DNA of 64,000 bases from Ostreococcus lucimarinus (lineage: Eukaryota), in assembly GCA_000092065.1 (NCBI GenBank), contig CP000595.1; one strand, written 5' to 3'. The position numbers and the translations under genes are program-made. The notes under the pieces are model-generated. The model saw nothing but the letters and a program-made list of their open reading frames with translations. It was not told where the DNA came from and searched no databases. Of this stretch, positions 33,001 to 44,512 are shown piece by piece (within the stretch, counting starts at the first letter, position 1; each line of letters starts with the position of its first letter).

Positions 33001-33374
33001 GCCCGCGTCGCCCAGTGCAGTTCGACCTCGCCTCTCGCGCACCGCTCCAGGAGCGCGTCGTCCGCCGCCCGCAGCGTCGCCGTCGTCGTCCCGTTCGCGC
33101 GCGTCCGCGTCTCCACTCGCACCGCGTGCCCCCCCGCGAGCGCGTGCGTCGTCTCGCGGACCACGTCCGGGACGTCCGCCTTTTTTTCGCGCGCGCCGGC
33201 GCCTCGTCCGACGCGCGCGCGCGTCCCGGCGTCGATCGCGCCGCGCGCCGTGGATAGCGTTCCTCGCGAAGATCGCGTCGCGCGGCGCGCCGTCGCGCGG
33301 TCGATCGTCGCGCGCGCCGCGTCCGCGCGCGCGAACGTCGCGCGCGTCGCGTCGCGCGCGAGAGAGACGCGCAT
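30015..33374 (-). CDS. GWD: Alpha-glucan water dikinase (GWD/PWD family starch phosphorylating enzyme) with an N-terminal transit-peptide-like region
   Basis: Phosphohistidine motif LLSHIAIRARNTNVLLASV. The C-terminus SPQDIEGAVVGDRIVLLQTRAQI matches the GWD SPQDIEG...VVQTRPQ end. The 1119-aa ORF has an R/A/T/S-rich N-terminus. Confidence 0.85.
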   Translation of the reverse strand: MRVSLARDATRATFARADAARATIDRATARRATRSSRGTLSTARGAIDAGTRARVGRGAGAREKKADVPDVVRETTHALAGGHAVRVETRTRANGTTTATLRAADDALLERCARGEVELHWATRAVDGDGSWAKAPRGLEARTGSRDFGDGIASRSAFDASGTLTLEMDCSNASEGDVEGLRNVGSIVGIVVCGEFWAHAEDGDVEMRVRESAAGGGGGAAGAESLARRAAEHEGGSVNLFTRFCMVDDALDAALAIGPEGAALVYAWLRLSSLRQLHWYAGNNYQGKDMASKQERLAGRIAHAATTAPDATSRGLMRASLAFLPRGGGNGDDIRMGILNIMRTHGIKEGHRPGIEDPFIAQWHQKLHSNTTPDDVKICEAYLHFLHTGNWDDFWAHLWDNAGLTREDLAGMKAGWRSDGIHGPAFHMPQMIDSFKHYLWVLKTTHSGGDVDSAMNFARNGLPGDLAWEVDDLLQNRDAWWVPGKIIEVRKKLLGVWQHDSPNRDVVMLDATLEKFFRTKVEAVDYGAMSSDDLLSLLELSLTNVALTNESTRIGEGLKFLQVAMGDGHGERWGADWSKTMDAALDFCALAMESDMDFLCRATQNAADIIASKSTKADPKYLINFGEENVRSHSLFVVSQLISTLRPAVRAAAGRSPWQIVSVGDASLETYAGMAKVQTLSEIQGEDFSSTPMVCFTETLGGLEDIPAGVKAVVTKAPVDLLSHIAIRARNTNVLLASVADDVLWNKVLEMAGENVRFSIAGEDVQIDKANVSDATTTASAKATTKVSIAPYKPSDAWLITPDAYSSDIVGGKSNSLSEMAKELAAMNIANVDVPGSYALPFGTFERALEEDVDTRTALEAAVAAIETATTAEDRRAALADAREIIATRLVCPQGLESALDEAAAKLSPSVDLPRLWDAVCGVWASKWTERAWLSRKSCGIDDKDLNVAVLLMELVDAEFAFVVHTANPVTGDADEIFGEICVGLGETLVGNDAGSALGFTVSKTTGEVTLRSLPSKLCGHFAPSGGTVIARSDSNGEDLENFAGAGLYDSITAEPTEERVVDYTASSIVWNSLAREAMIRRISDIAKSVESYRGSPQDIEGAVVGDRIVLLQTRAQIC

Positions 33375-33516
33375 CGCGCGCGCGCGCGTCGTCGGTCGCG
33401 GTGTGACGATTCGCTTCGACGAATCGAATCGTCAGAGCGCGACGCCGCGCCGCGCGGACGCGTCGACGCGCGGCGCGACGCGACGGCGACGCGCGCGGTC
33501 CTCCGCGGCGTTTCGC

Positions 33517-33726
33517 ATGTGCGGCGCGTGCCGCGCGCGGCGCGCGAGCGCGAGAGAGACGACGACGCGCGCGGAATTCTGCGCGCCGTGTCGCGACGGC
33601 GCGAGAGCGACGACGACGCGCGCGACGCGCGTCGCGGACGGGGCGTCGTTCGACGTCGTCGTGTGCGGCGCGGGCGCGGCGGGGACGTCGTTCGCGCGGA
33701 CGTACCTGGAGACGACGGCGCGGGGT

Positions 33727-33766
<40 letters not shown>

Positions 33767-35241
33767 CGCGCGGCGCGAGGCTGCTGCTGCTCGATCGCGG
33801 CGGATGCGCGAAGACGGTCGAGCGCGTGGAGCGCGTGACGCGGCGGGCGTCGGTGTACGGCGCGCGGGAGAGCGCGCTGGGGGCGCTGGAGGCGCTGGGG
33901 GCGCGGACGGCGACGGCGAGCGTCGCGGCGTGCGACGCCGAGTCGAAGACGTTGACGCTGGACGACGGCGCGCGCGTGCGGTACGGCGCGCTGTGCGTCG
34001 CCACGGGGGCGACGCCGCGATGTCCGCTGCCGGAGGCGAGCGATGGAGCGGTCGACGCGCACGAGGTGCGAGACGTGGAGAGCGCGGACGCGCTGGCGAG
34101 ACGGTTGAGCTCGATGACGGCGACGGCGAGCGCGGATTCGGATTCAAAGACGAAACGGATCGCGATCGCGGGGAACGGAGGGATCGCGCTCGAGCTCGTC
34201 GACGCGCTCTGTGTGCGAGGTTTGCGCGCGCGAGGGTTGGAGGCGTGCGAATTGGTGTGGTTGGTGAAACACGGCGAAGTCGGCGACGCCTTTTTCGACG
34301 TCGACGCCGCGGATTTCTTGCTGCGCGCGCTCGACGCGAGACGGCGAGACGGCGAGGCGAAAGACGACGACGGCGCGGACGTGGACTGGGACTCACCGAC
34401 GCCCGAACGCGGTGCCGGACGATCGACGAAGAAGCGCGCGCGAGGGCGCGAATCAGGCGCCGCCGCCGGTCCGGATTGGCTCGACAGATTTAGAGCGAAG
34501 AGCGCGGCGGACGACGCGCGCGCGCCTCTCAGCCGCATGAAGCTTCGCGTGCTGAAAAATGTGTGCATACGCGAAGCGCGTAAAGACGCAAACACCGGCG
34601 TCAACGTATTGACGCTGAGCGATGGGACGACGATCGAGGTGGACGCCGTCGTCGCCGCCGCGGGCGTCGAGCCGAGATGCGATTGGCTCGACGAAGTCGC
34701 CGCGCCGAGGTCGAAATCAGACGGCGGTATACTCGTCGATGCGTGCATGCGCACCGTAGGACCGTACGGCGACTCAATATTTGCCGTCGGCGACGCGTGC
34801 ACGATGTCGGCGCGCGCGTCGAACCCAGAGACGCCGTGGTTTCAAATGCGACTGTGGAGCCAGGCGGCGCAAACAGGCGCCTTCGCCGCGAAAGTCGCCG
34901 TGGGCGTCTGCGACGCCGACGCCCTCGGATTCAATTTCGAAATCTTTACCCACGTCACCAGGTTTTTCGGTCTCAAAGTCATCTTGCTCGGGCTGTACAA
35001 CGCCCAGAAGCTCGACGACGTCCCGGCGAACGAGGTGACGACGTACCAGCGCGAGTCGCTCGCCGACGCGACGTACGTGCGCGTGCTCCTCGTCCGCGGT
35101 CGCATGATGGGCGCCGTGCTCGTCGGCGACACCGATCTCGAGGAAACTTTCGAAAACCTAATCTTAGACGGCGTCGATCTATCGCGTTTCGGTCCGAGTT
35201 TACTCGATCCCGAGCTCGACTTGGAGGATTATTTCGACTGA
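33517..35241 (+). CDS. PYROXD1: PYROXD1-like FAD/NAD(P)-dependent pyridine nucleotide-disulfide oxidoreductase, copy A
   Basis: FDVVVCGAGAAGTSFA Rossmann motif, IAGNGGIALELV, GPDW and VGDACTMS. The C-terminal RGRMMGAVLVGDTDLEETFENLILDGVDLSRFGPSLLDPELDLEDYFD matches the conserved PYROXD1 C-terminus. It carries a (GD)6 insert encoded by (GGCGAC)6. The start is taken at the first Met inside the repeat, because upstream ORF sequence is antisense to GWD. Confidence 0.8.
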
Positions 35242-35323
35242 CGCGACGCGCGAGACGAGCGAGAAACGAATGAAATCAAATGACAATCAACCCTAGACAA
35301 CTACCACCGTCCGACGCCCGCGC

Positions 35324-35727
35324 TCAGTGCGGTTTCGGCACGAACCCGTCCACCGCGAAATTCCGCGTCGCGCGCGGTAAAATCACGACGCATCCCTCCA
35401 ACGCTCCGCGCTCCAGCGTCACCTGACACCCCAACCTCGACGTCGCCGTCAACCCGTACGCCAAATCTAACATGTCGTTCTCGTCGTCGCACGCCTCCGG
35501 CAGCGTCTCGAACACTTTTTCGTCCTCGAACACGACGTGGCACGTGGAACACGCGAGCGAGCCCTCGCACGCGCCCTCGAGCTCGACGTCGTGCCGGTGC
35601 GCCGTCTCCAGCAGGTTCTCGCCAATCAATCCGCGCACCGCGCGTCGCTCACCGTCGCGCTCGACGAACGTCACCTCGATCGAGTTCTCGGGCGTGAGTT
35701 TCGTCTTTTTGTCCGCGCCGTGCGCGA
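35324..35727 (-). pseudogene. 3' fragment of the adrenodoxin-type 2Fe-2S ferredoxin gene, truncated at the duplication boundary
   Basis: Encodes ...VTFVERDGERRAVRGLIGENLLETAHRHDVELEGACEGSLACSTCHVVFEDE...CQVTLERG... identical to the C-terminal two-thirds of the 42442-43047 gene. Homology stops at 35727, upstream of which the presequence is missing. Confidence 0.7.
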
Positions 35728-36283
35728 CCGTGATCCCGGCTCGTCCACGTGGCGCGTACGAATAAGAATGAGAATGAGAATGCGCGGCGATCGAGCGTCT
35801 TCGTTCGCGCGGTCGCGTCCCCGCGCTCGGCCGCTCGTGCGTTCGCGCGCGTTCGCGGTCGAGTCGATCACCGGACGACGCGTTCGTTCGCGCGTCGTCG
35901 AGTGCGGCGACCGAGGGCCGTCGCGCCCGGTGATGCGATGTCCACGTGGGATCGTGGAATATCTGGCTGTGTGCGTAAACAGTGACGGGGGGCTTCTCGG
36001 ATCGACCCCGCGGCCCGTGGGGAGAGGGGCATGGTGTTGGATGGTGTGTACGCGAAACGTGTGTGCATCATACGTATATTGACCCAAAGGTATCTATCAC
36101 GTGTAAAGGTACTAATGTGTGTGTGAAATTCAATGATGGGTCATGACTCGAGAACGGGGGGGGGAGGCACACCCGGGATGCGCGCCGATTCTTATCGACA
36201 GAGGAGGACGAGGAGGACGATTGGCGCGCGCGTCGCGTTCGATGGAAAACCGATGTCGTATGACAAACAGATAAAAACGTTAT

Positions 36284-37702
36284 TTAGTGCGCGTGCCCGT
36301 GCGAGTGGCCGCCGCCGCCGCCGGCTGTGCAGTGCTTGTGGTTGAGGAGCACGAGACTGACGGCGACGACGCCGACGACGAACGTCAAGAGGCTCGCCGC
36401 GCGAAGACGAGACGTAGTGGCGCTCACCGAAACTCGCGGCATACACTCCGCGGCAGCGATTTGTAGATAGATTCCAGCGCCAAAGGCGAGCAAAAGTCCG
36501 TGCCAGAAGTCGTTGTTACTTCCAGATCCAACGCTGATGAGAACGCCGAGGATGACGCTCACGCCGGAGATGAAGTTCATGAACAGCGAGCGAAACGGCG
36601 TGAGATCGCCCTGGAAGGGATCCGTGAGTACCAAATAGTCGGCGAGCTCTTGCGCGATTTCGTGATAGACGGTCGCGGCGGTGATCGACCATCCCATGGT
36701 CTTTCCACAGTTCAGGAAACCGAATCCGATGAAGATGCCATCCACGAGGTTGTGCATGAAATCTCCGAGGATGATGCCGCTTCGAACGCGATACTTGTGC
36801 GAGTGGCACGTTTCGCAATCTTCTTGAACGCCTTTGATCGCGTTCTCCGCGTCGATCGTCTTCGTCTCGGCTAAACGAGAAGGGAACGCGATGGAGATGC
36901 CCAAATCGATGATGTACGCCACGAGAAAGCCAAAGACGGACGCGGACGCCCACCACGCGGTTTGTTGCGACTCATCCGAACCGGCGGGTTTGATCAAATG
37001 CGTGGCTTCGTACAACATCAGATAGAACGCAGCCGAAAGAAGTGCACCGGCGGCAAAGGAGTTAATGATGCAACTCACGAATTCGGGGTACGCTTTCTGC
37101 TTCTTCGCGAAGCTCGGAGAGAGAAAGATGACGCCGGAAAGCGTGACGATGTTGACGATGATCGCCGCCCCGATGGCGTCGGACCACGGTTTTGATTTCT
37201 TTGTAGTCACCGTTTCGGGAAGCGAAGCCACTGGCTCCACGTCATCCCCGTTGACATCCTTGAGATAGTGCGTATCGCGCTCGAACTCGGTGGGAACGTG
37301 CTCGGCGAAAATCGAGACGGCGGCGACGCCAGTCGTATCAATCTTAAACGACGACGTGTGCCAAGCGTTATCAAATTGAAGTTTGACGCATCCACTCCCG
37401 GGCGTCAAAACGCTGTTTCGCGTTTTAACCGTCGTGCACGCCGTCTCGAGCGCGGCCTCGCCCGCGTCCTCGCGAGCCTCGAGCTCTTCGTGTCCGGCGG
37501 CGGTTTCGGCGTAGATGACCATCTTCATGGTCGCGTCCGCGTACTGGTCCTTCACCTTTTCCGCCTGCCACACGTACGCATCGTCCGGAGTCTCAAAGAT
37601 CCCCGCCCATTCGAACGAGTGCGCGTGCGCGCCGGACGCGAGCGCGCCGCGCGCCGCGAGCGCGCTCGAGACGACCGCCGCGCCTCCGAGCGCGGCGCCC
37701 AT
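36284..37702 (-). CDS. ZIP family (LIV-1/KE4-like subfamily) zinc/metal transporter
   Basis: HEIAQELADYLVL (HExPHExGD motif), GDFMHNLVDGIFIGFGF, a C-terminal His-rich GGGGGHSHGHAH tail, and the signal-peptide-like MGAALGGAAVVSSALAARGALASGAHAHS. The start is chosen at that Met. Upstream in-frame Mets exist. Confidence 0.8.
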   Translation of the reverse strand: MGAALGGAAVVSSALAARGALASGAHAHSFEWAGIFETPDDAYVWQAEKVKDQYADATMKMVIYAETAAGHEELEAREDAGEAALETACTTVKTRNSVLTPGSGCVKLQFDNAWHTSSFKIDTTGVAAVSIFAEHVPTEFERDTHYLKDVNGDDVEPVASLPETVTTKKSKPWSDAIGAAIIVNIVTLSGVIFLSPSFAKKQKAYPEFVSCIINSFAAGALLSAAFYLMLYEATHLIKPAGSDESQQTAWWASASVFGFLVAYIIDLGISIAFPSRLAETKTIDAENAIKGVQEDCETCHSHKYRVRSGIILGDFMHNLVDGIFIGFGFLNCGKTMGWSITAATVYHEIAQELADYLVLTDPFQGDLTPFRSLFMNFISGVSVILGVLISVGSGSNNDFWHGLLLAFGAGIYLQIAAAECMPRVSVSATTSRLRAASLLTFVVGVVAVSLVLLNHKHCTAGGGGGHSHGHAH

Positions 37703-37943
37703 CCTCCATCCGCCTCCTCGTCGTCGTCGTCGTCGTCCCGCGCCCGCGGTCGCGTCTCGCGTCGTCATCGCGTCGCGCATCGTCTCGTCTATCGTCTCGT
37801 GCATCGTCTCGTTCGTCGTCGTCGTCGTCGTCGCGCGTCGTCGAGTGCGGCGACCGCGCGCGCCGGCATCGCGACGAGACGACTCGAACCGGCGCGAGGG
37901 GGGTACTTCTCGAGTCATGACTCGATATTCATGAGAACACCAT

Positions 37944-37971
37944 GTGTCGACACCTCGCGAGGTGTCGACAC
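37944..37971. promoter_or_regulatory. 28-bp perfect palindrome GTGTCGACACCTCGCGAGGTGTCGACAC holding two exact ZDRE-type motifs (RTGTCGACAY) in the ZIP/bZIP divergent promoter
   Basis: Read directly. Its reverse complement equals itself. It lies 242 bp upstream of the ZIP ATG (37702, minus strand) and 47 bp upstream of the bZIP ATG (38018). A second palindrome CGAGTCATGACTCG with TGACTC half-sites is at 37911-37924. Confidence 0.65.
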
Positions 37972-38017
37972 GCGTGTCTTCGTACGTCCGCGCGCGACGA
38001 CGACGACGACGACGAGG

Positions 38018-38680
38018 ATGACGACCGTCGGCGGCGCCGCGCGACGTGACGATCGAGGCTCGGCGTTGCCTCCGCGATGCGTCGAGATCGCGCGCGAGTC
38101 GCCGTCGGCGTCGCCGTCTCGAAGGAAAACGCCCGCGAACGATCGCGCCGTCAATCGCGCCGCCGTGCGACGGTACCGCGAGCGCAAACGAATGGACGAG
38201 AAGGAGAGAATCGAGGAGTGCGAACGGTTGCGCGGGGAGAACGAGACGTTGAGACTGGCGTTGGAGACGTCACGAGCGGAGTTGAAACATTCGAGGTGGT
38301 TGTTGCGCGTCGTCGCGTGGAAGTACGACTTAGACTTGGCGGATATTCCGACGGAGAAACCGTCGACGTCGACGATGCCGCAAGGGAGGGTGAGAGGAAG
38401 CGATGCAAACGCGGTGTTTCCCGCGGGTGGGGTCCCCGCGCGGAACGACATCGCGCGACCGTTCGCCGCGCGCGGCGTCGCCGAGACGCGGCCTCGGAAA
38501 ATTCCTCGCGCAGCCGACGACGACGCGAAACCGGCGGGCGCGCCTGATGAACTCGAGCTCAAAGATTTCTTGGAGGAATACTTCACGCACGGCGACGCGT
38601 GCCCGTGCTACGAGATCACGGACGCGGACGCGCGCGCGGCGCCGACGCGCGGCGCCGACGCGCGGCACGCGTGGTTCTAG
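38018..38680 (+). CDS. bZIP-like transcription factor, paralog 1, with a C-terminal Cys motif (FLEEYFTHGDACPCYE)
   Basis: Basic region NRAAVRRYRERKR (N-x7-R), then the zipper EECERLRGENETLRLALETSRAELKHSRWLL. It aligns along its length with the second bZIP at 58700-59194, including the FLxEfxxHxDxxCPC tail. Confidence 0.6.
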   Translation: MTTVGGAARRDDRGSALPPRCVEIARESPSASPSRRKTPANDRAVNRAAVRRYRERKRMDEKERIEECERLRGENETLRLALETSRAELKHSRWLLRVVAWKYDLDLADIPTEKPSTSTMPQGRVRGSDANAVFPAGGVPARNDIARPFAARGVAETRPRKIPRAADDDAKPAGAPDELELKDFLEEYFTHGDACPCYEITDADARAAPTRGADARHAWF

Positions 38681-38850
38681 GTATGACGACACATTTACGT
38701 CACACGGTGAAACGTTTTACGCTTCTAATATTATATTATAAAGTTAGTCAACCTATATAGTTACACGCACCACATGATGTCACACGTGATGTGCACACGC
38801 GTATGTATTCGTACTGTGAGTACAATAAGCCTAACATTGTGTAAAATCCC

Positions 38851-40167
38851 GTGCCCACGATGATCGCGCGTGTCGACACGAACAGACGGTTGGCCGAAAA
38901 GGCGAAAGGGTCGGCGGCTGTCGTCATCTCTCGACGAACGTTGGCGCTCGACATGGCGGACGAGCAAGACCAGACCTCGCGCGTGCCGGTGACCATTCTC
39001 ACCGGATTTCTCGGTTCCGGGAAGACGACGCTCCTCAATGAAATCTTGGAATCCGAAACGCACGGATTGCGCTTCGCGGTGATTGAAAATGAATTCGGAG
39101 AGGTGGGCGTCGACGAGAGGATTCTGTCGGAGAAGGCGGACGAAGAGATCATCGAGGTCATGAACGGTTGCATCTGCTGCACGGTGCGCGGTGATCTCGT
39201 GGTGGCGCTGAAAAAGCTCTACTCGAAGATCGCGCAGTTCGACGCCGTCATCATCGAGACGACGGGTTTGGCGGATCCGGCGCCGGTGGCGCAGACGTTC
39301 TTCGTCGACGATGACATTCGAGAAAAGTTTGTGCTCGACGGAATCATCACGGTCACGGACGCGAAGCACATCCTCACGCGGCTCGATGATGAAAAACCCG
39401 AGGGTGTGGAGAATGAAGCCGCCGAACAGGTCGCTTTTGCCGATCGGATACTCCTCAACAAGACCGACTTGGTGTCCGAAGACGAACTCGAAACCATCAC
39501 GGGCCGGATCAAGCAAATTAATCCGAGCGCCGATATCTTCCGATGCCAGTATTCCAAGGTTGATCCGAAAAATTTGATCGGAATCAATTCCTTCTCGCTC
39601 GAGAAGACCTTAAAAATGGATCCCGAATTCCTCAACACGGAGGGCGAGCATGAACACGACCCAACCGTGTCTTCGACGAGCACAAAATTCTCTGGGCACC
39701 TCAACATCAATAAATTAGAACGCTGGATAGGCGAAATAATTCAAACAATGGGTGCGGACTTGTTTCGGTACAAGGGTGTTCTTTCCGTTGCGGGCATGGA
39801 TCAAAAGTTTGTTTTCCAGGGCGTCGGCATGCTTTTCTCCGGCGGCTTCGTCGACGCCAAGTGGGGAGCCGACGAGGAGCGCGAATGCCGCTTCGTCTTC
39901 ATCGGTAAAAATCTGGACAAAGACGCCCTCATCAACGGTTTCATGGATTGCAAGTGTTCCTCGAAGCTTCGCTTCAAGGTGGGCGACGCGGTTCTCGCGC
40001 AGGTGGGCGCCGCCGACAACGACGGCTACTGCCGCGGCACCGTCCGTAAGACGTGGGACTCGGGCAACCCGTACCAGATCGAACTTGAAGACGGTAAAAA
40101 GACAAAAGTGTGGGGACCCGTCGACGAAGACGAGTTCGTCAAAGCTTCGCTCAGCGCCACCGCGTAA
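38851..40167 (+). CDS. COG0523/CobW-family GTPase (ZNG1-like zinc metallochaperone family)
   Basis: ILTGFLGSGKTTLLNEIL (P-loop), GCICCTVRGDL (CxCC metal motif), DAVIIETTGLADP and a CobW_C-like C-terminus. An exact ZDRE GTGTCGACAC at 38870-38879 lies inside the first annotated codons, so the true start is probably the Met at 38953 (MADEQDQTSRVPVTILTGF). Confidence 0.8.
   Translation: MPTMIARVDTNRRLAEKAKGSAAVVISRRTLALDMADEQDQTSRVPVTILTGFLGSGKTTLLNEILESETHGLRFAVIENEFGEVGVDERILSEKADEEIIEVMNGCICCTVRGDLVVALKKLYSKIAQFDAVIIETTGLADPAPVAQTFFVDDDIREKFVLDGIITVTDAKHILTRLDDEKPEGVENEAAEQVAFADRILLNKTDLVSEDELETITGRIKQINPSADIFRCQYSKVDPKNLIGINSFSLEKTLKMDPEFLNTEGEHEHDPTVSSTSTKFSGHLNINKLERWIGEIIQTMGADLFRYKGVLSVAGMDQKFVFQGVGMLFSGGFVDAKWGADEERECRFVFIGKNLDKDALINGFMDCKCSSKLRFKVGDAVLAQVGAADNDGYCRGTVRKTWDSGNPYQIELEDGKKTKVWGPVDEDEFVKASLSATA
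38870..38879. promoter_or_regulatory. ZDRE-type motif GTGTCGACAC at the 5' end of the COG0523 gene
   Basis: Exact match to RTGTCGACAY. It is 74-83 bp upstream of the alternative start at 38953. Confidence 0.5.
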
Positions 40168-40317
40168 ATGTCGTTTTGTATGAAATCAAATCAAAATTTT
40201 GACCAGTCATGAACCTTCGTGTACACACTCCTCCTTTAGCGCGAACACACACGCATAGTATAGATACAAAAAGACAAGGTAAAACCCATCCAACGCACTC
40301 GCACCGGCTCGCCGGCT

Positions 40318-40492
40318 CGCCTCGTCCGACGCGCGCGCGCGTCCCGGCGTCGATCGCGCCGCGCGCCGTGGATAGCGTTCCTCGCGAAGATCGCGTCGCG
40401 CGGCGCGCCGTCGCGCGGTCGATCGTCGCGCGCGCCGCGTCCGCGCGCGCGAACGTCGCGCGCGTCGCGTCGCGCGCGAGAGAGACGCGCAT
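40318..40492 (-). pseudogene. Duplicated 5' fragment of the GWD gene: promoter-proximal sequence and the first 57 codons, with no downstream GWD sequence
   Basis: ORF 40151-40492 begins MRVSLARDATRATFARADAARATIDRATARRATRSSRGTLSTARGAIDAGTRARVGRG, identical to the GWD N-terminus. It diverges at the repeat edge and runs antisense into the last 17 nt of the COG0523 gene. Confidence 0.7.
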
Positions 40493-40634
40493 CGCGCGCG
40501 CGCGCGTCGTCGGTCGCGGTGTGACGATTCGCTTCGACGAATCGAATCGTCAGAGCGCGACGCCGCGCCGCGCGGACGCGTCGACGCGCGGCGCGACGCG
40601 ACGGCGACGCGCGCGGTCCTCCGCGGCGTTTCGC

Positions 40635-40844
40635 ATGTGCGGCGCGTGCCGCGCGCGGCGCGCGAGCGCGAGAGAGACGACGACGCGCGCGGAATTCTGC
40701 GCGCCGTGTCGCGACGGCGCGAGAGCGACGACGACGCGCGCGACGCGCGTCGCGGACGGGGCGTCGTTCGACGTCGTCGTGTGCGGCGCGGGCGCGGCGG
40801 GGACGTCGTTCGCGCGGACGTACCTGGAGACGACGGCGCGGGGT

Positions 40845-40884
<40 letters not shown>

Positions 40885-42359
40885 CGCGCGGCGCGAGGCT
40901 GCTGCTGCTCGATCGCGGCGGATGCGCGAAGACGGTCGAGCGCGTGGAGCGCGTGACGCGGCGGGCGTCGGTGTACGGCGCGCGGGAGGACGCGCTGGGG
41001 GCGCTGGAGGCGCTGGGGGCGCGGACGGCGACGGCGAGCGTCGCGGCGTGCGACGCCGAGTCGAAGACGTTGACGCTGGACGACGGCGCGCGCGTGCGGT
41101 ACGGCGCGCTGTGCGTCGCCACGGGGGCGACGCCGCGATGTCCACTGCCGGAGGCGAGCGATGGAGCGGTCGACGCGCACGAGGTGCGAGACGTGGAGAG
41201 CGCGGACGCGCTGGCGAGACGGTTGAGCTCGATGACGGCGACGGCGAGCGCGGATTCGGATTCAAAGACGAAACGGATCGCGATCGCGGGGAACGGAGGG
41301 ATCGCGCTCGAGCTCGTCGACGCGCTATGTGTGCGAGGTTTGCGCGCGCGAGGGTTGGAGGCGTGTGAATTGGTGTGGTTGGTGAAACACGGCGAAGTCG
41401 GCGACGCCTTTTTCGACGTCGACGCCGCGGATTTCTTGCTGCGCGCGCTCGACGCGAGACGGCGAGACGGCGAGGCGAAAGACGACGACGGCGCGGACGT
41501 GGACTGGGACTCACCGACGCCCGAACGCGGTGCCGGACGATCGACGAAGAAGCGCGCGCGAGGGCGCGAATCAGGCGCCGCCGCCGGTCCGGATTGGCTC
41601 GACAGATTTAGAGCGAAGAGCGCGGCGGACGACGCGCGCGCGCCTCTCAGCCGCATGAAGCTTCGCGTGCTGAAAAATGTGTGCATACGCGAAGCGCGTA
41701 AAGACGCAAACACCGGCGTCAACGTATTGACGCTGAGCGATGGGACGACGATCGAGGTGGACGCCGTCGTCGCCGCCGCGGGCGTCGAGCCGAGATGCGA
41801 TTGGCTCGACGAAGTCGCCGCGCCGAGGTCGAAATCAGACGGCGGTATACTCGTCGATGCGTGCATGCGCACCGTAGGACCGTACGGCGACTCAATATTT
41901 GCCGTCGGCGACGCGTGCACGATGTCGGCGCGCGCGTCGAACCCAGAGACGCCGTGGTTTCAAATGCGACTGTGGAGCCAGGCGGCGCAAACAGGCGCCT
42001 TCGCCGCGAAAGTCGCCGCGGGCGTCTGCGACGCCGACGCCCTCGGATTCAATTTCGAAATCTTTACCCACGTCACCAGGTTTTTCGGTCTCAAAGTCAT
42101 CTTGCTCGGGCTGTACAACGCCCAGAAGCTCGACGACGTCCCGGCGAACGAGGTGACGACGTACCAGCGCGAGTCGCTCGCCGACGCGACGTACGTGCGC
42201 GTGCTCCTCGTCCGCGGTCGCATGATGGGCGCCGTGCTCGTCGGCGACACCGATCTCGAGGAAACTTTCGAAAACCTAATCTTAGACGGCGTCGATCTAT
42301 CGCGTTTCGGTCCGAGTTTACTCGATCCCGAGCTCGACTTGGAGGATTATTTCGACTGA
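40635..42359 (+). CDS. PYROXD1: PYROXD1-like oxidoreductase, copy B
   Basis: Identical to copy A apart from two amino-acid substitutions noted on inspection (E/D and V/A). Confidence 0.8.
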
Positions 42360-42441
42360 CGCGACGCGCGAGACGAGCGAGAAACGAATGAAATCAAATG
42401 ACAATCAACCCTAGACAACTACCACCGTCCGACGCCCGCGC

Positions 42442-43047
42442 TCAGTGCGGTTTCGGCACGAACCCGTCCACCGCGAAATTCCGCGTCGCGCGCGGTAAAA
42501 TCACGACGCATCCCTCCAACGCTCCGCGCTCCAGCGTCACCTGACACCCCAACCTCGACGTCGCCGTCAACCCGTACGCCAAATCTAACATGTCGTTCTC
42601 GTCGTCGCACGCCTCCGGCAGCGTCTCGAACACTTTTTCGTCCTCGAACACGACGTGGCACGTGGAACACGCGAGCGAGCCCTCGCACGCGCCCTCGAGC
42701 TCGACGTCGTGCCGGTGCGCCGTCTCCAGCAGGTTCTCGCCAATCAATCCGCGCACCGCGCGTCGCTCACCGTCGCGCTCGACGAACGTCACCTCGATCG
42801 AGTTCTCGGGCGTGAGTTTCGTCTTTTTGTCCGCGCCGTGCGCGATCCGCGGCGACGCGGAGACGCCGCGAGCGACGTAAAGCTGGGCAGGTTTCTGGGA
42901 CGCGCGCGGCGCGGCGTCCCGGGGACGCGACGCCGACGCGCGCGGGAGGGCGGTCGAGGCGAAACACGCGGTCGACGACGACGACGACGACGACGACGCG
43001 CATCGCGCGCTCGCGGCGGCGCACGCGCGCGCGAGACGGCGAAACAT
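42442..43047 (-). CDS. Adrenodoxin-type [2Fe-2S] ferredoxin with an N-terminal mitochondrial-type presequence (intact copy)
   Basis: CEGSLACSTCHV matches the CxxxxxCxxCH cluster motif. LDLAYGLTATSRLGCQV gives the fourth Cys. The N-terminus MFRRLARACAAASARCASSSSSSSSTACFAS is R/A/S-rich. It is convergent with PYROXD1 copy B, whose stop is at 42359. Confidence 0.8.
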   Translation of the reverse strand: MFRRLARACAAASARCASSSSSSSSTACFASTALPRASASRPRDAAPRASQKPAQLYVARGVSASPRIAHGADKKTKLTPENSIEVTFVERDGERRAVRGLIGENLLETAHRHDVELEGACEGSLACSTCHVVFEDEKVFETLPEACDDENDMLDLAYGLTATSRLGCQVTLERGALEGCVVILPRATRNFAVDGFVPKPH

Positions 43048-43334
43048 CGGCGCGGTGGGACCTCGCGAGGCGCGAAGTGAAGCCGAGGCGAAGACAAAGT
43101 TGAAAGTCGAATTGCAACGCGGCGGCGCCTCGCGGCGGCGCGAGGGCCCGCGCGCGACGTGTAAGTGTTAATGTTGGTTAATAGTCGGTGGATCATTCGT
43201 CGACGTCCAGGGCGCGCGCGCGGTTCGACGCCGCTCGGCCGAGGTTTTGTTCAAACAGACGCGAAGAGCGGCGCGAGCGCGACTTCGCCGCTCGCCCCCC
43301 CTGCGGACGAGGGCGTCGGGCGCGCGTAAAAGAA

Positions 43335-43694
43335 TCATTCGTTCGGGTAAAGTTCCCTCTCAAACTCCTCCAAAGTTGCTAAATCGCTCGGTTTGAGCTT
43401 AATGCCCTTGTGTCCGCGCGGGTATCGGCGCTCCAGCGCCCGCATCGCGTCCTCCAATTTCCTCCGCTCGCTATACATCAGATACGCCACGGCGACGCTC
43501 GGCGCGCGCGAGTGCCCGCTCATGCAGTACACCAGCACCCTATTCGGCACCCCAGCCTCATCCGCGCGCTTCGCCTTGACGTGTAATTGCTCTAACTTCC
43601 TCACCGTCTCCCCTAAATCCAATTTCGTACCGTCATTCGCGTTTCGCGGCGCCGTGAAGACGTCTATTTGCCTAGAGCTACAGCACGGCGTGCA
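43335..43694 (-). CDS. Dual-specificity phosphatase, 3' exon with the catalytic CX5R loop
   Basis: VLVYCMSGHSRAPSVAVAYLM (C-x5-R P-loop). The exon boundary is approximate: a CAG acceptor-like site precedes 43694. Confidence 0.6.
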   Translation of the reverse strand, partial: CTPCCSSRQIDVFTAPRNANDGTKLDLGETVRKLEQLHVKAKRADEAGVPNRVLVYCMSGHSRAPSVAVAYLMYSERRKLEDAMRALERRYPRGHKGIKLKPSDLATLEEFERELYPNE

Positions 43695-43979
43695 CTGCGG
43701 CACGCTCTGTTCGTTCGCGCGCGTCGCGCCGTTCGTCAGTCACCGCGCTTCGCGCCCGCCGATCGCGTCCACCCATCCCACATCGTCCCCAAACCGTCGT
43801 CTCGCGCCTTCGATCTCGTCCCCTCCATTCGCGCTCGCCTCCTCCTCGTCTCTCCGCGCGCGTCCCGCTCGCGCGCGGGCCCCCCAAGTCCCGCGCCCTT
43901 CCCCGCGCTCCCGTCCCGTCGCCTCTCTCTTCCCGCGCTCGCGTCGTTCGCCCGCCGCGCTCGCCCGCTCGAAACGCAC

Positions 43980-44252
43980 GTTCATCACCGTTCGTATCCC
44001 GCACGCCAGCAGCACGTCCTCCTTGCTCGTGTGTTCGAACGCGCCGAGGCACAAAAACTTGTCGATGACTTCGATGATTGGTTCGTCGTGCCCCAATCGC
44101 GGTCTCGGGAGGTCGTCGAGGTCGTCGTCGACGCGTCGGTGGTGGCCGCAGACGCCGCACGTCGTGCCCGGCGCGTGGTCGTGGCCGCACGCGCGGCACC
44201 AGGCGGCGCGCGGCGGCGGGGCGTCGTCGTCGCTGTCGACGACGTGCGGCAT
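43980..44252 (-). CDS. Dual-specificity phosphatase, 5' exon with an N-terminal Cys/His zinc-ribbon-like stretch
   Basis: MPHVVDSDDD...WCRACGHDHAPGTTCGVCGHH...EPIIEVIDKFLCLGAFEHTSKEDVLLACGIRTVMN, the DSP domain start, then a GTGCGT donor at 43979. The exon-2 reading frame has no Met near the domain, so a roughly 285-nt intron is inferred. Confidence 0.55.
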
Positions 44253-44305
44253 CGTGTGCGCGCGTGGGGGGGTCGGGGGCGATGCTTTGCGTGTGATTGT
44301 CGCGC

Positions 44306-44512
44306 ATTCGGCGTGTCTAATACGGGGTTGAGGTGCGTATTGGGGGGGGCGTTCGCGTTGATTAGGTTAGGCGATTTTTGTGTCCGTGTTTTTATGGAGG
44401 TGATTGATTCTTTGGGTGCGCGCGTCCCGGATTCGGCGTGTACAATACGGGGTTTAGGTGCGTATTGCGGGGGACCGTGATCGGGCGATTTTTGTGTCCG
44501 TGTTTATATGTA
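44306..44512. repeat. Two tandem copies of a roughly 125-bp element in the divergent DSP/PITH promoter
   Basis: attcggcgtgtctaatacggggttgaggtgcgtattgggggg...gcgatttttgtgtccgtgtttttatgg is repeated with minor changes from 44431. Confidence 0.7.

Follow-up and report, generated by a model that had tools for sequence, protein, structure and literature searches.

How did two nearly identical copies of a 2.5-kb segment come to lie on either side of a ZIP–bZIP–COG0523 gene cluster in Ostreococcus lucimarinus? We addressed this question in a 64,000-nucleotide stretch of the genome (NCBI GenBank assembly GCA_000092065.1, contig CP000595.1), hereafter called the window. Below, R denotes the repeated host segment, X the block between its two copies (A and B), L the host DNA to the left, with the rest of a glucan-water-dikinase-like (GWD) gene, and Rt the host DNA to the right, with the rest of a 2Fe-2S ferredoxin gene. 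Our reading, to which we assign a probability of roughly 60%, is that one replicative repair event with two template switches turned L-R-Rt into L-R-X-R-Rt. Gene content was taken from a listing of open reading frames (ORFs) and from Pfam; public contigs were gathered by exact-protein look-ups and scored by 40-mers across the four junctions L/R, R/X, X/R and R/Rt.

Anatomy of the repeat and the inserted block

As a first-pass annotation of the window had proposed, two near-identical 2.5-kb copies are present. Copies A and B measure 2528 bp each, lie in direct orientation at an offset of 7118 bp, differ by 6 substitutions and 0 indels (99.76% identity), and form the sole long repeat within the window (Table 1). 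A match this long cannot be put down to chance. Read in the PYROXD1 frame, the mismatches (33871, 33872, 34026, 34209, 34248 and 34901) replace two residues, S by D through two substitutions in one codon and V by A, and the other three are synonymous. The ORF listing and Pfam also agree with the content annotated for each copy, namely the GWD 5' end, a full PYROXD1 gene, and the 3' two-thirds of the ferredoxin gene, except that we count 58 GWD codons instead of 57. The annotated boundaries hold apart from the exact left edge of R, where CGCCTCG (33200-33206, identical to 40318-40324) also stands at the end of the donor sequence and leaves an ambiguity of 7 nt. The breakpoints cut GWD at codon 58 and the ferredoxin gene at about codon 67, and the annotated distribution of whole and broken genes is likewise correct. 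On the copy A side, the 1119-aa GWD continues and the ferredoxin fragment has no start, no in-frame ATG having been found upstream of it; on the copy B side, the ferredoxin is intact and an orphan GWD fragment faces the 3' end of COG0523, its ORF (40151-40492, minus strand) overlapping the COG0523 stop codon by 17 nt.

Where X came from could be determined from contigs that carry the same genes in another setting. Window positions 35735-40341 match a native locus end to end in contigs L007-L016, as no other part of the window does. The order at this locus, found in more than 15 contigs (some of 848 kb), is a 1032-aa gene (-), ZIP (-), bZIP (+), COG0523 (+), RPS26e, and DnaJ. X starts at the position of the start codon of the native 1032-aa gene, and so carries that gene's promoter region, and it ends ~150 bp past the COG0523 stop codon. 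Between the inserted copy and L037, the nearest native haplotype found, 25 of 4004 positions differ (99.4% identity). Since this distance of ~0.5-0.6% is smaller than the 1.1-3% separating native haplotypes from one another, the inserted X nests within native diversity; 32 sites (0.7%) in the insertion allele differ from every sampled native copy. The first-pass annotation had the gene content of the 4.6 kb between the copies right, but missed that this DNA is not resident sequence: the block is a copy of the locus beside the 1032-aa gene and RPS26e. Because X is itself copied, the event joined two duplicated templates and was not a 2.5-kb duplication that chanced to flank the cluster.

The contigs with the native locus originate in assemblies from the Great Barrier Reef; counted by substitutions, their identity to the inserted X is 98.3%. 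Their GC content of 60% fits Ostreococcus, that of Bathycoccus being much lower. The window most likely belongs to the same Ostreococcus species complex as these contigs; the only eukaryotic genomes reported in the Great Barrier Reef study are those of Bathycoccus and Ostreococcus clade B, the latter with >99% average nucleotide identity to RCC809 (PMC13558084).

The rearrangement created two new junctions, J2 (R end to X start) and J3 (X end to R start). Neither breakpoint has long homology: J2 shows 1 nt, and J3 shows 7 nt of exact identity within a stretch where the donor flank and the R start agree at 21 of 24 nt. Of 200,000 pairs of positions taken at random from the two loci, 0 reached this degree of similarity. 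CGCCTCG is found in three places, at the end of the donor segment, at the R start, and in the product. X sits at the exact R/R joint, and host bases were neither lost nor gained. At J2 (35728-35735, minus strand), the native start codon of the 1032-aa gene lands in frame with the truncated ferredoxin; this codon is ACG in every insertion allele examined and ATG in all native haplotypes. Alternating CG runs adjoin the J3 breakpoint in both the host (33185-33225 and 40318-40345) and the donor (L007:11459-11485). Such runs could break easily or stall forks, or they could be no more than what a GC-rich genome usually contains.

A block flanked by a direct host duplication resembles a transposon with its target-site duplication. 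However, the duplication here measures 2528 bp instead of 2-20 bp, and X is simply a piece of chromosome with three genes, encoding ZIP, bZIP and COG0523 only. Its ends were searched for terminal and inverted repeats and for other features typical of transposons, with none found, and it has no transposase or integrase. A transposon or retro-copy origin was accordingly rejected, X having no terminal or inverted repeats and holding promoters and genes on both strands.

The same flanking duplication could also be the fill-in signature of a staggered break, in which nicks 2.5 kb apart on opposite strands would have been followed by ligation of a free X and by fill-in to give a 2.5-kb target-site duplication. 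Microhomologies of 1 and 7 nt would be compatible with such end-joining. Nevertheless, target-site duplications are usually far shorter than 2.5 kb, the similarity over 24 nt at J3 suggests priming guided by homology and not blunt capture, and a free 4.6-kb copy of X would be required while the donor stayed intact. We consider this route improbable.

Table 1. Segments, junctions and genes of the rearranged region, in window coordinates
Feature	Position	Strand	Description
GWD-like gene, intact, 1119 aa	30015..33374	-	Pfam PPDK_N, GWD1_pHisD; first 58 codons inside copy A
Copy A of host segment R	33200..35727		Left, rest of GWD; right, inserted block X; in register with copy B
PYROXD1-like gene, copy A, 574 aa, intact	33517..35241	+	Pfam Pyr_redox_2; homologues called PYROXD1 by their sources
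Truncated ferredoxin, C-terminal 134 of 201 codons	35324..35727	-	Pfam Fer2; without N-terminal presequence
J2	35727..35728		1 nt microhomology (A); sequence identical in all insertion-bearing contigs
X, 4590-bp insertion between the copies, probably templated	35728..40317		Copy of native ZIP-bZIP-COG0523 locus
ZIP-family metal transporter, inserted copy	36284..37918	-	Pfam Zip
bZIP transcription factor, inserted copy	37931..38680	+	Pfam bZIP_2, 29.3 bits, above curated cut-off; start 37931 or 38018
COG0523 (CobW-type G3E GTPase, 435 aa), inserted copy	38860..40167	+	Pfam cobW 206.9 bits, CobW_C 80.3 bits
J3	40318..40324		7 nt exact microhomology CGCCTCG
Copy B of host segment R	40318..42845		Left, X; right, rest of ferredoxin gene; in register with copy A; junction 40-mers in 13 independent contigs
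Orphan GWD 5' fragment, 58 codons and upstream region	40318..40492	-	Faces COG0523 3' end; deleted in type-2 allele
PYROXD1-like gene, copy B, 574 aa, intact	40635..42359	+	Relative to copy A, S to D and V to A
2Fe-2S ferredoxin, intact, 201 aa	42442..43047	-	3' two-thirds inside copy B

The insertion in independent contigs and wild alleles

We then asked whether the structure is real. All four junctions lie on one molecule in 13 distinct contigs from different studies, J2 and J3 also occur together in 1 partial contig, and J2 is found with a variant J3 in 4 more. Three of the 13 contigs measure 372-466 kb and span everything with unique flanks; frameshift-type errors in them suggest that they are long-read assemblies, a kind of contig in which exact-protein look-up is fragile. 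The junction-spanning check that had been proposed at first pass is thus positive on single contigs in 13 independent assemblies.

The alternative offered with it, a collapsed or erroneous assembly, would mean that collapse, a mis-join or loop traversal had produced the structure from a genome with one R. As consensus threading predicts, most short-read metagenome contigs show no difference between A and B, which we attribute to assemblers passing twice through one consensus node. N gaps within copy B occur in three scaffolds, with 2 of the 13 contigs affected. The short-read contigs therefore support the junctions and not copy-specific sequence. Yet repeat collapse cannot create junction sequences, and J2 and J3 recur in 13 or more independent assemblies from different studies. 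In both the window and L002, moreover, A and B carry different bases at known polymorphic sites, and a derived deletion allele has the same J2. With independent contigs spanning both copies between unique flanks, among them the three of 372-466 kb, the artefact is refuted for practical purposes, and we regard it as exceedingly improbable.

The insertion is still segregating: some wild Ostreococcus-like picoalgae carry it, and others do not. An empty allele, with the order GWD-PYROXD1-ferredoxin-DSPc, a single R and no X, was found in 8 contigs of the same species complex that are 95-99.9% identical to the window and include 129-265-kb contigs and unbranched MEGAHIT contigs. The same gene order, again unbroken, occurs in two outgroup lineages, at ~92% and ~70% DNA identity, which makes the empty arrangement ancestral and the insertion derived. 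Literature searches returned no earlier description of this duplication variant.

A further allele, type 2, was found in four independent assemblies (L020, L031, L032 and L033) with J2 and a different X/R joint. Window positions 40287-40523 are missing from it, and this 237-bp deletion takes out the whole orphan GWD fragment together with its start codon and 31 bp of upstream sequence. Because its J2 is identical, we read type 2 as a secondary derivative; the exact same J2 also led us to reject an independent insertion. The deletion would abolish any antisense transcription into COG0523.

How old is the insertion? Dating the event by the identity of A and B was rejected. The six differences coincide with sites that vary between population alleles, copy A carrying a common haplotype that equals that of the empty allele L005, and copy B carrying another. 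As segregating single-nucleotide polymorphisms (SNPs), they are not mutations that arose after the duplication and cannot date it. The insertion allele is geographically widespread, occurring in samples from several ocean surveys. The first-pass annotation had called the insertion both duplicative and very young. The first description holds, and the second does not follow, given the segregating A/B SNPs, the widespread allele, the derived deletion sub-allele, and fixed amino-acid changes in ZIP (see below): the insertion is recent on the species scale, and "very young" is not established.

The divergence of the two duplicated parts could, taken naively, indicate two ages, X being ~0.5% from its nearest sampled native copy while the R copies differ by 0.24% in the window and by 0% in some contigs. 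Such ages would follow from several events, either a tandem duplication of R with X later placed at the R/R joint, or an X inserted into the ferredoxin gene and then rescued by the duplication. However, the 25 contigs of the complex include no intermediate allele (e.g., R-R or L-R-X-Rt), X stands precisely where R meets R with no host bases lost, and a haploid would probably not survive an X that broke its only ferredoxin gene. Moreover, the apparent age gap falls within haplotype diversity and incomplete sampling of native donors. An origin in several events is, in our estimate, quite improbable.

The public metagenomes also hold distinct lineages of the same gene neighborhood, with L117 and L120 at ~92% and L126 at ~95% DNA identity, besides those at 98.5-99.9%. 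L120 and L122 both come from one sample (ERZ10646569). The coexistence of lineages at 92%, 95% and 98.5-99.9% suggests a complex of closely related Ostreococcus lineages. Divergence appears uneven along the locus: lineages seem to differ far more at positions 42846-44400, just right of copy B, with the ferredoxin presequence, the DSPc phosphatase and intergenic DNA, than they do on the GWD side. Across 40307-44399, L128 is 97.0% identical, though its R part is ~99.7% and the GWD side 99.7-99.8%, so that 42846-44400 must be ~94-95%.

Possible routes to the insertion allele

The data show what the arrangement is, which locus served as donor, how the junctions read, which order is ancestral, and that the locus is polymorphic; we then considered how such an allele could have formed. 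The structural account of the rearrangement is highly probable in our view, the replicative mechanism somewhat probable. According to the proposed mechanism, a nascent strand copying R would have disengaged at 35727, inside the ferredoxin gene, and primed at a distant locus via the 1 nt of homology at J2. There, it would have copied 4.6 kb comprising ZIP, bZIP, COG0523 and flanking promoter DNA, before switching back to the host chromosome 2.5 kb behind its point of departure, guided by the 7-nt match in the 24-nt similar patch. R would then have been copied again, with synthesis continuing into Rt. Re-copying R leaves one intact GWD on the left and one intact ferredoxin on the right. Had X simply been inserted at one breakpoint or the other, a gene would have been lost, and in a compact genome that we presume, from what is known of Ostreococcus, to be haploid, only gene-sparing products would survive.

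The event class belongs to the family of microhomology-mediated break-induced replication (MMBIR) and fork stalling and template switching (FoSTeS). Three features of the locus match what a templated insertion should look like: X agrees with a locus that has different neighbors in more than 15 contigs, R lies on both sides of X in direct orientation with the host flanks otherwise uninterrupted, and the junctions have microhomology only. In a cycle of templated insertions, as defined from cancer genomes, the string returns and re-replicates a host segment; most such cycles have two breakpoint junctions, and each template gains one copy (Li et al. 2020, PMC7025897). As in those cycles, templates from distinct loci are strung together here at one locus and a host segment is re-replicated. 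Unlike them, this is not a somatic event in a cancer genome, with templates usually far larger or smaller, but a heritable variant segregating in a wild unicellular alga, with templates of 2.5 and 4.6 kb and both interrupted genes preserved.

Human germline copy-number variants (CNVs) ascribed to FoSTeS/MMBIR offer a second comparison. Complex duplications and insertions of this origin were reportedly described among them by Hastings and colleagues in 2009. The traits shared with such variants (Gu et al. 2016, PMC5120786) are non-recurrent gains, insertion from a non-adjacent locus, and microhomology at junctions. The difference is that our mechanism is deduced from junction anatomy only, and that one junction has just 1 nt of homology.

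A different route to the same sequence would be Campbell-type integration, in which an R fragment is end-joined to an X fragment, forming J2 and J3 in a 7.1-kb circle that then integrates by homologous recombination at the chromosomal R. Single-crossover integration of an R+X circle yields exactly this product, with X flanked by direct repeats equal to the shared homology, as is indeed found; this arrangement does not discriminate the circle from template switching. Empty alleles on backgrounds 99.9% identical to the window (L030) are what scarless excision would leave, yet a persisting ancestral state also explains them. A scaffold with two identical X-R units in tandem (L132, described below) would also suit a circle, yet its units are 100% identical in a short-read scaffold, as a loop traversed twice would give. 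Furthermore, no circular or R-X-only contig was seen among the contigs, and the circle requires two fragments to be released, ligated at both ends, and then integrated, which is more steps than replication with two switches. We consider this origin unlikely.

In the L132 scaffold itself (L132:1-11751; TARA_SAMEA2620959-S115 scaffold_171), the two 100% identical tandem X-R units are 4868 bp each. This short-read scaffold is ambiguous between a real amplification by unequal crossing-over and an assembler looping twice.

Several points weigh against the origin by two template switches. First, the first 26 nt of X differ at 4 positions from every sampled native haplotype. Second, most of the supporting contigs are short-read metagenome assemblies, able to thread a loop with a consensus repeat, and such assemblies could be chimeric between two X copies; L033 looks mosaic. 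Third, native loci are intact in many contigs, none of which is tied to the same genome as an insertion allele. Finally, sequence alone cannot separate replicative switching from circle integration or staggered-break capture, as all three give the same final sequence. We infer a single-event origin, and we expect that the donor copy persists in the same genome as the insertion.

If formed by template switching, the locus would provide a clean natural case of a class of rearrangement known mainly from tumors and human copy-number disorders. As the variant is still segregating, public data contain not only its primary product but also the allele that preceded it and a secondary derivative. The locus would also illustrate how a gene-dense, presumed haploid genome can gain genes without loss, since the re-copied host segment rescues both cut genes.

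Gene content and possible consequences

By its predicted gene content, the insertion allele brings in another complete PYROXD1 gene and the region upstream of it, together with what appear to be two dead gene fragments. It would also add a second ZIP-bZIP-COG0523 cluster, if the donor is retained. The inserted copies of ZIP, bZIP and COG0523 are all three intact, and public gene calls place the ZIP start at 37702 (472 aa). Besides the cobW and CobW_C domains, the COG0523 copy has a CxCC motif (GCICC at residue 104), features that together mark it as a putative zinc-associated G3E GTPase. A subset of COG0523 proteins is tied to zinc homeostasis, and algae have many COG0523 paralogues (Haas et al. 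2009, PMC2770081). As in the zinc-linked neighborhoods of that study, a CxCC COG0523 GTPase here stands beside a ZIP transporter, whereas the intervening bZIP gene is absent from the bacterial COG0523/ZIP neighborhoods described. Given the link of COG0523 and ZIP to zinc homeostasis, a dosage effect on metal acquisition is plausible.

To see how the inserted genes have changed, we compared them with all sampled native copies. In ZIP, the derived changes are 6 nonsynonymous and 0 synonymous (sites 36361, 36870, 37081, 37111, 37457 and 37911; I to V, V to A, V to F twice, D to E, Q to R), and four of the six are fixed or nearly fixed across insertion alleles. In bZIP, there are 3 synonymous changes and 1 nonsynonymous change, and in COG0523 none. 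The chance of 6 out of 6 being nonsynonymous is ~0.18, assuming that about a quarter of sites are synonymous, and the counts are too small for a formal test. The pattern in ZIP hints at relaxed or altered selection. Gene conversion is not needed to account for the zero divergence of COG0523, since native haplotypes show the same degree of conservation in this gene.

The relative next in distance (L041:1-1997; COG0523 84% identical) has a divergent ZIP and COG0523 that lie only ~430 bp apart. No bZIP is apparent between the two genes in this contig, and the bZIP may thus have joined the cluster only recently.

A gene block held between long direct repeats is the layout of Campbell-type pop-in/pop-out cassettes and of amplifiable units in bacteria and yeast. 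As in those systems, the repeats here permit, in principle, scarless loss or tandem amplification by homologous recombination; unlike them, the locus has no recombinase or attachment site, and its repeats are ordinary host genes. One could imagine R-X-R as a reversible, amplifiable dosage cassette for metal acquisition, with recombination between the repeats removing or expanding X, selection tracking zinc or other trace metals maintaining the insertion, deletion-variant and empty alleles in ocean populations, and ZIP diverging in function. We consider this idea unlikely. If true, homologous recombination would regenerate the ancestral allele scarlessly or build tandem arrays. If the extra cluster alters metal uptake, the frequency of junction k-mers could be compared with trace-metal measurements across ocean metagenomes, and this would allow a direct test of whether structural variation is linked to nutrient ecology.

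Elsewhere in the window, a single 7684-aa ORF (3688-26742, plus strand) fills the low-GC part. Its counterparts in related contigs have weak or faint Pfam matches only (Big_9, EGF_TEN and Ephrin_rec_like). GC content is ~56% in this region versus 63.5% to its right, and 60% overall.

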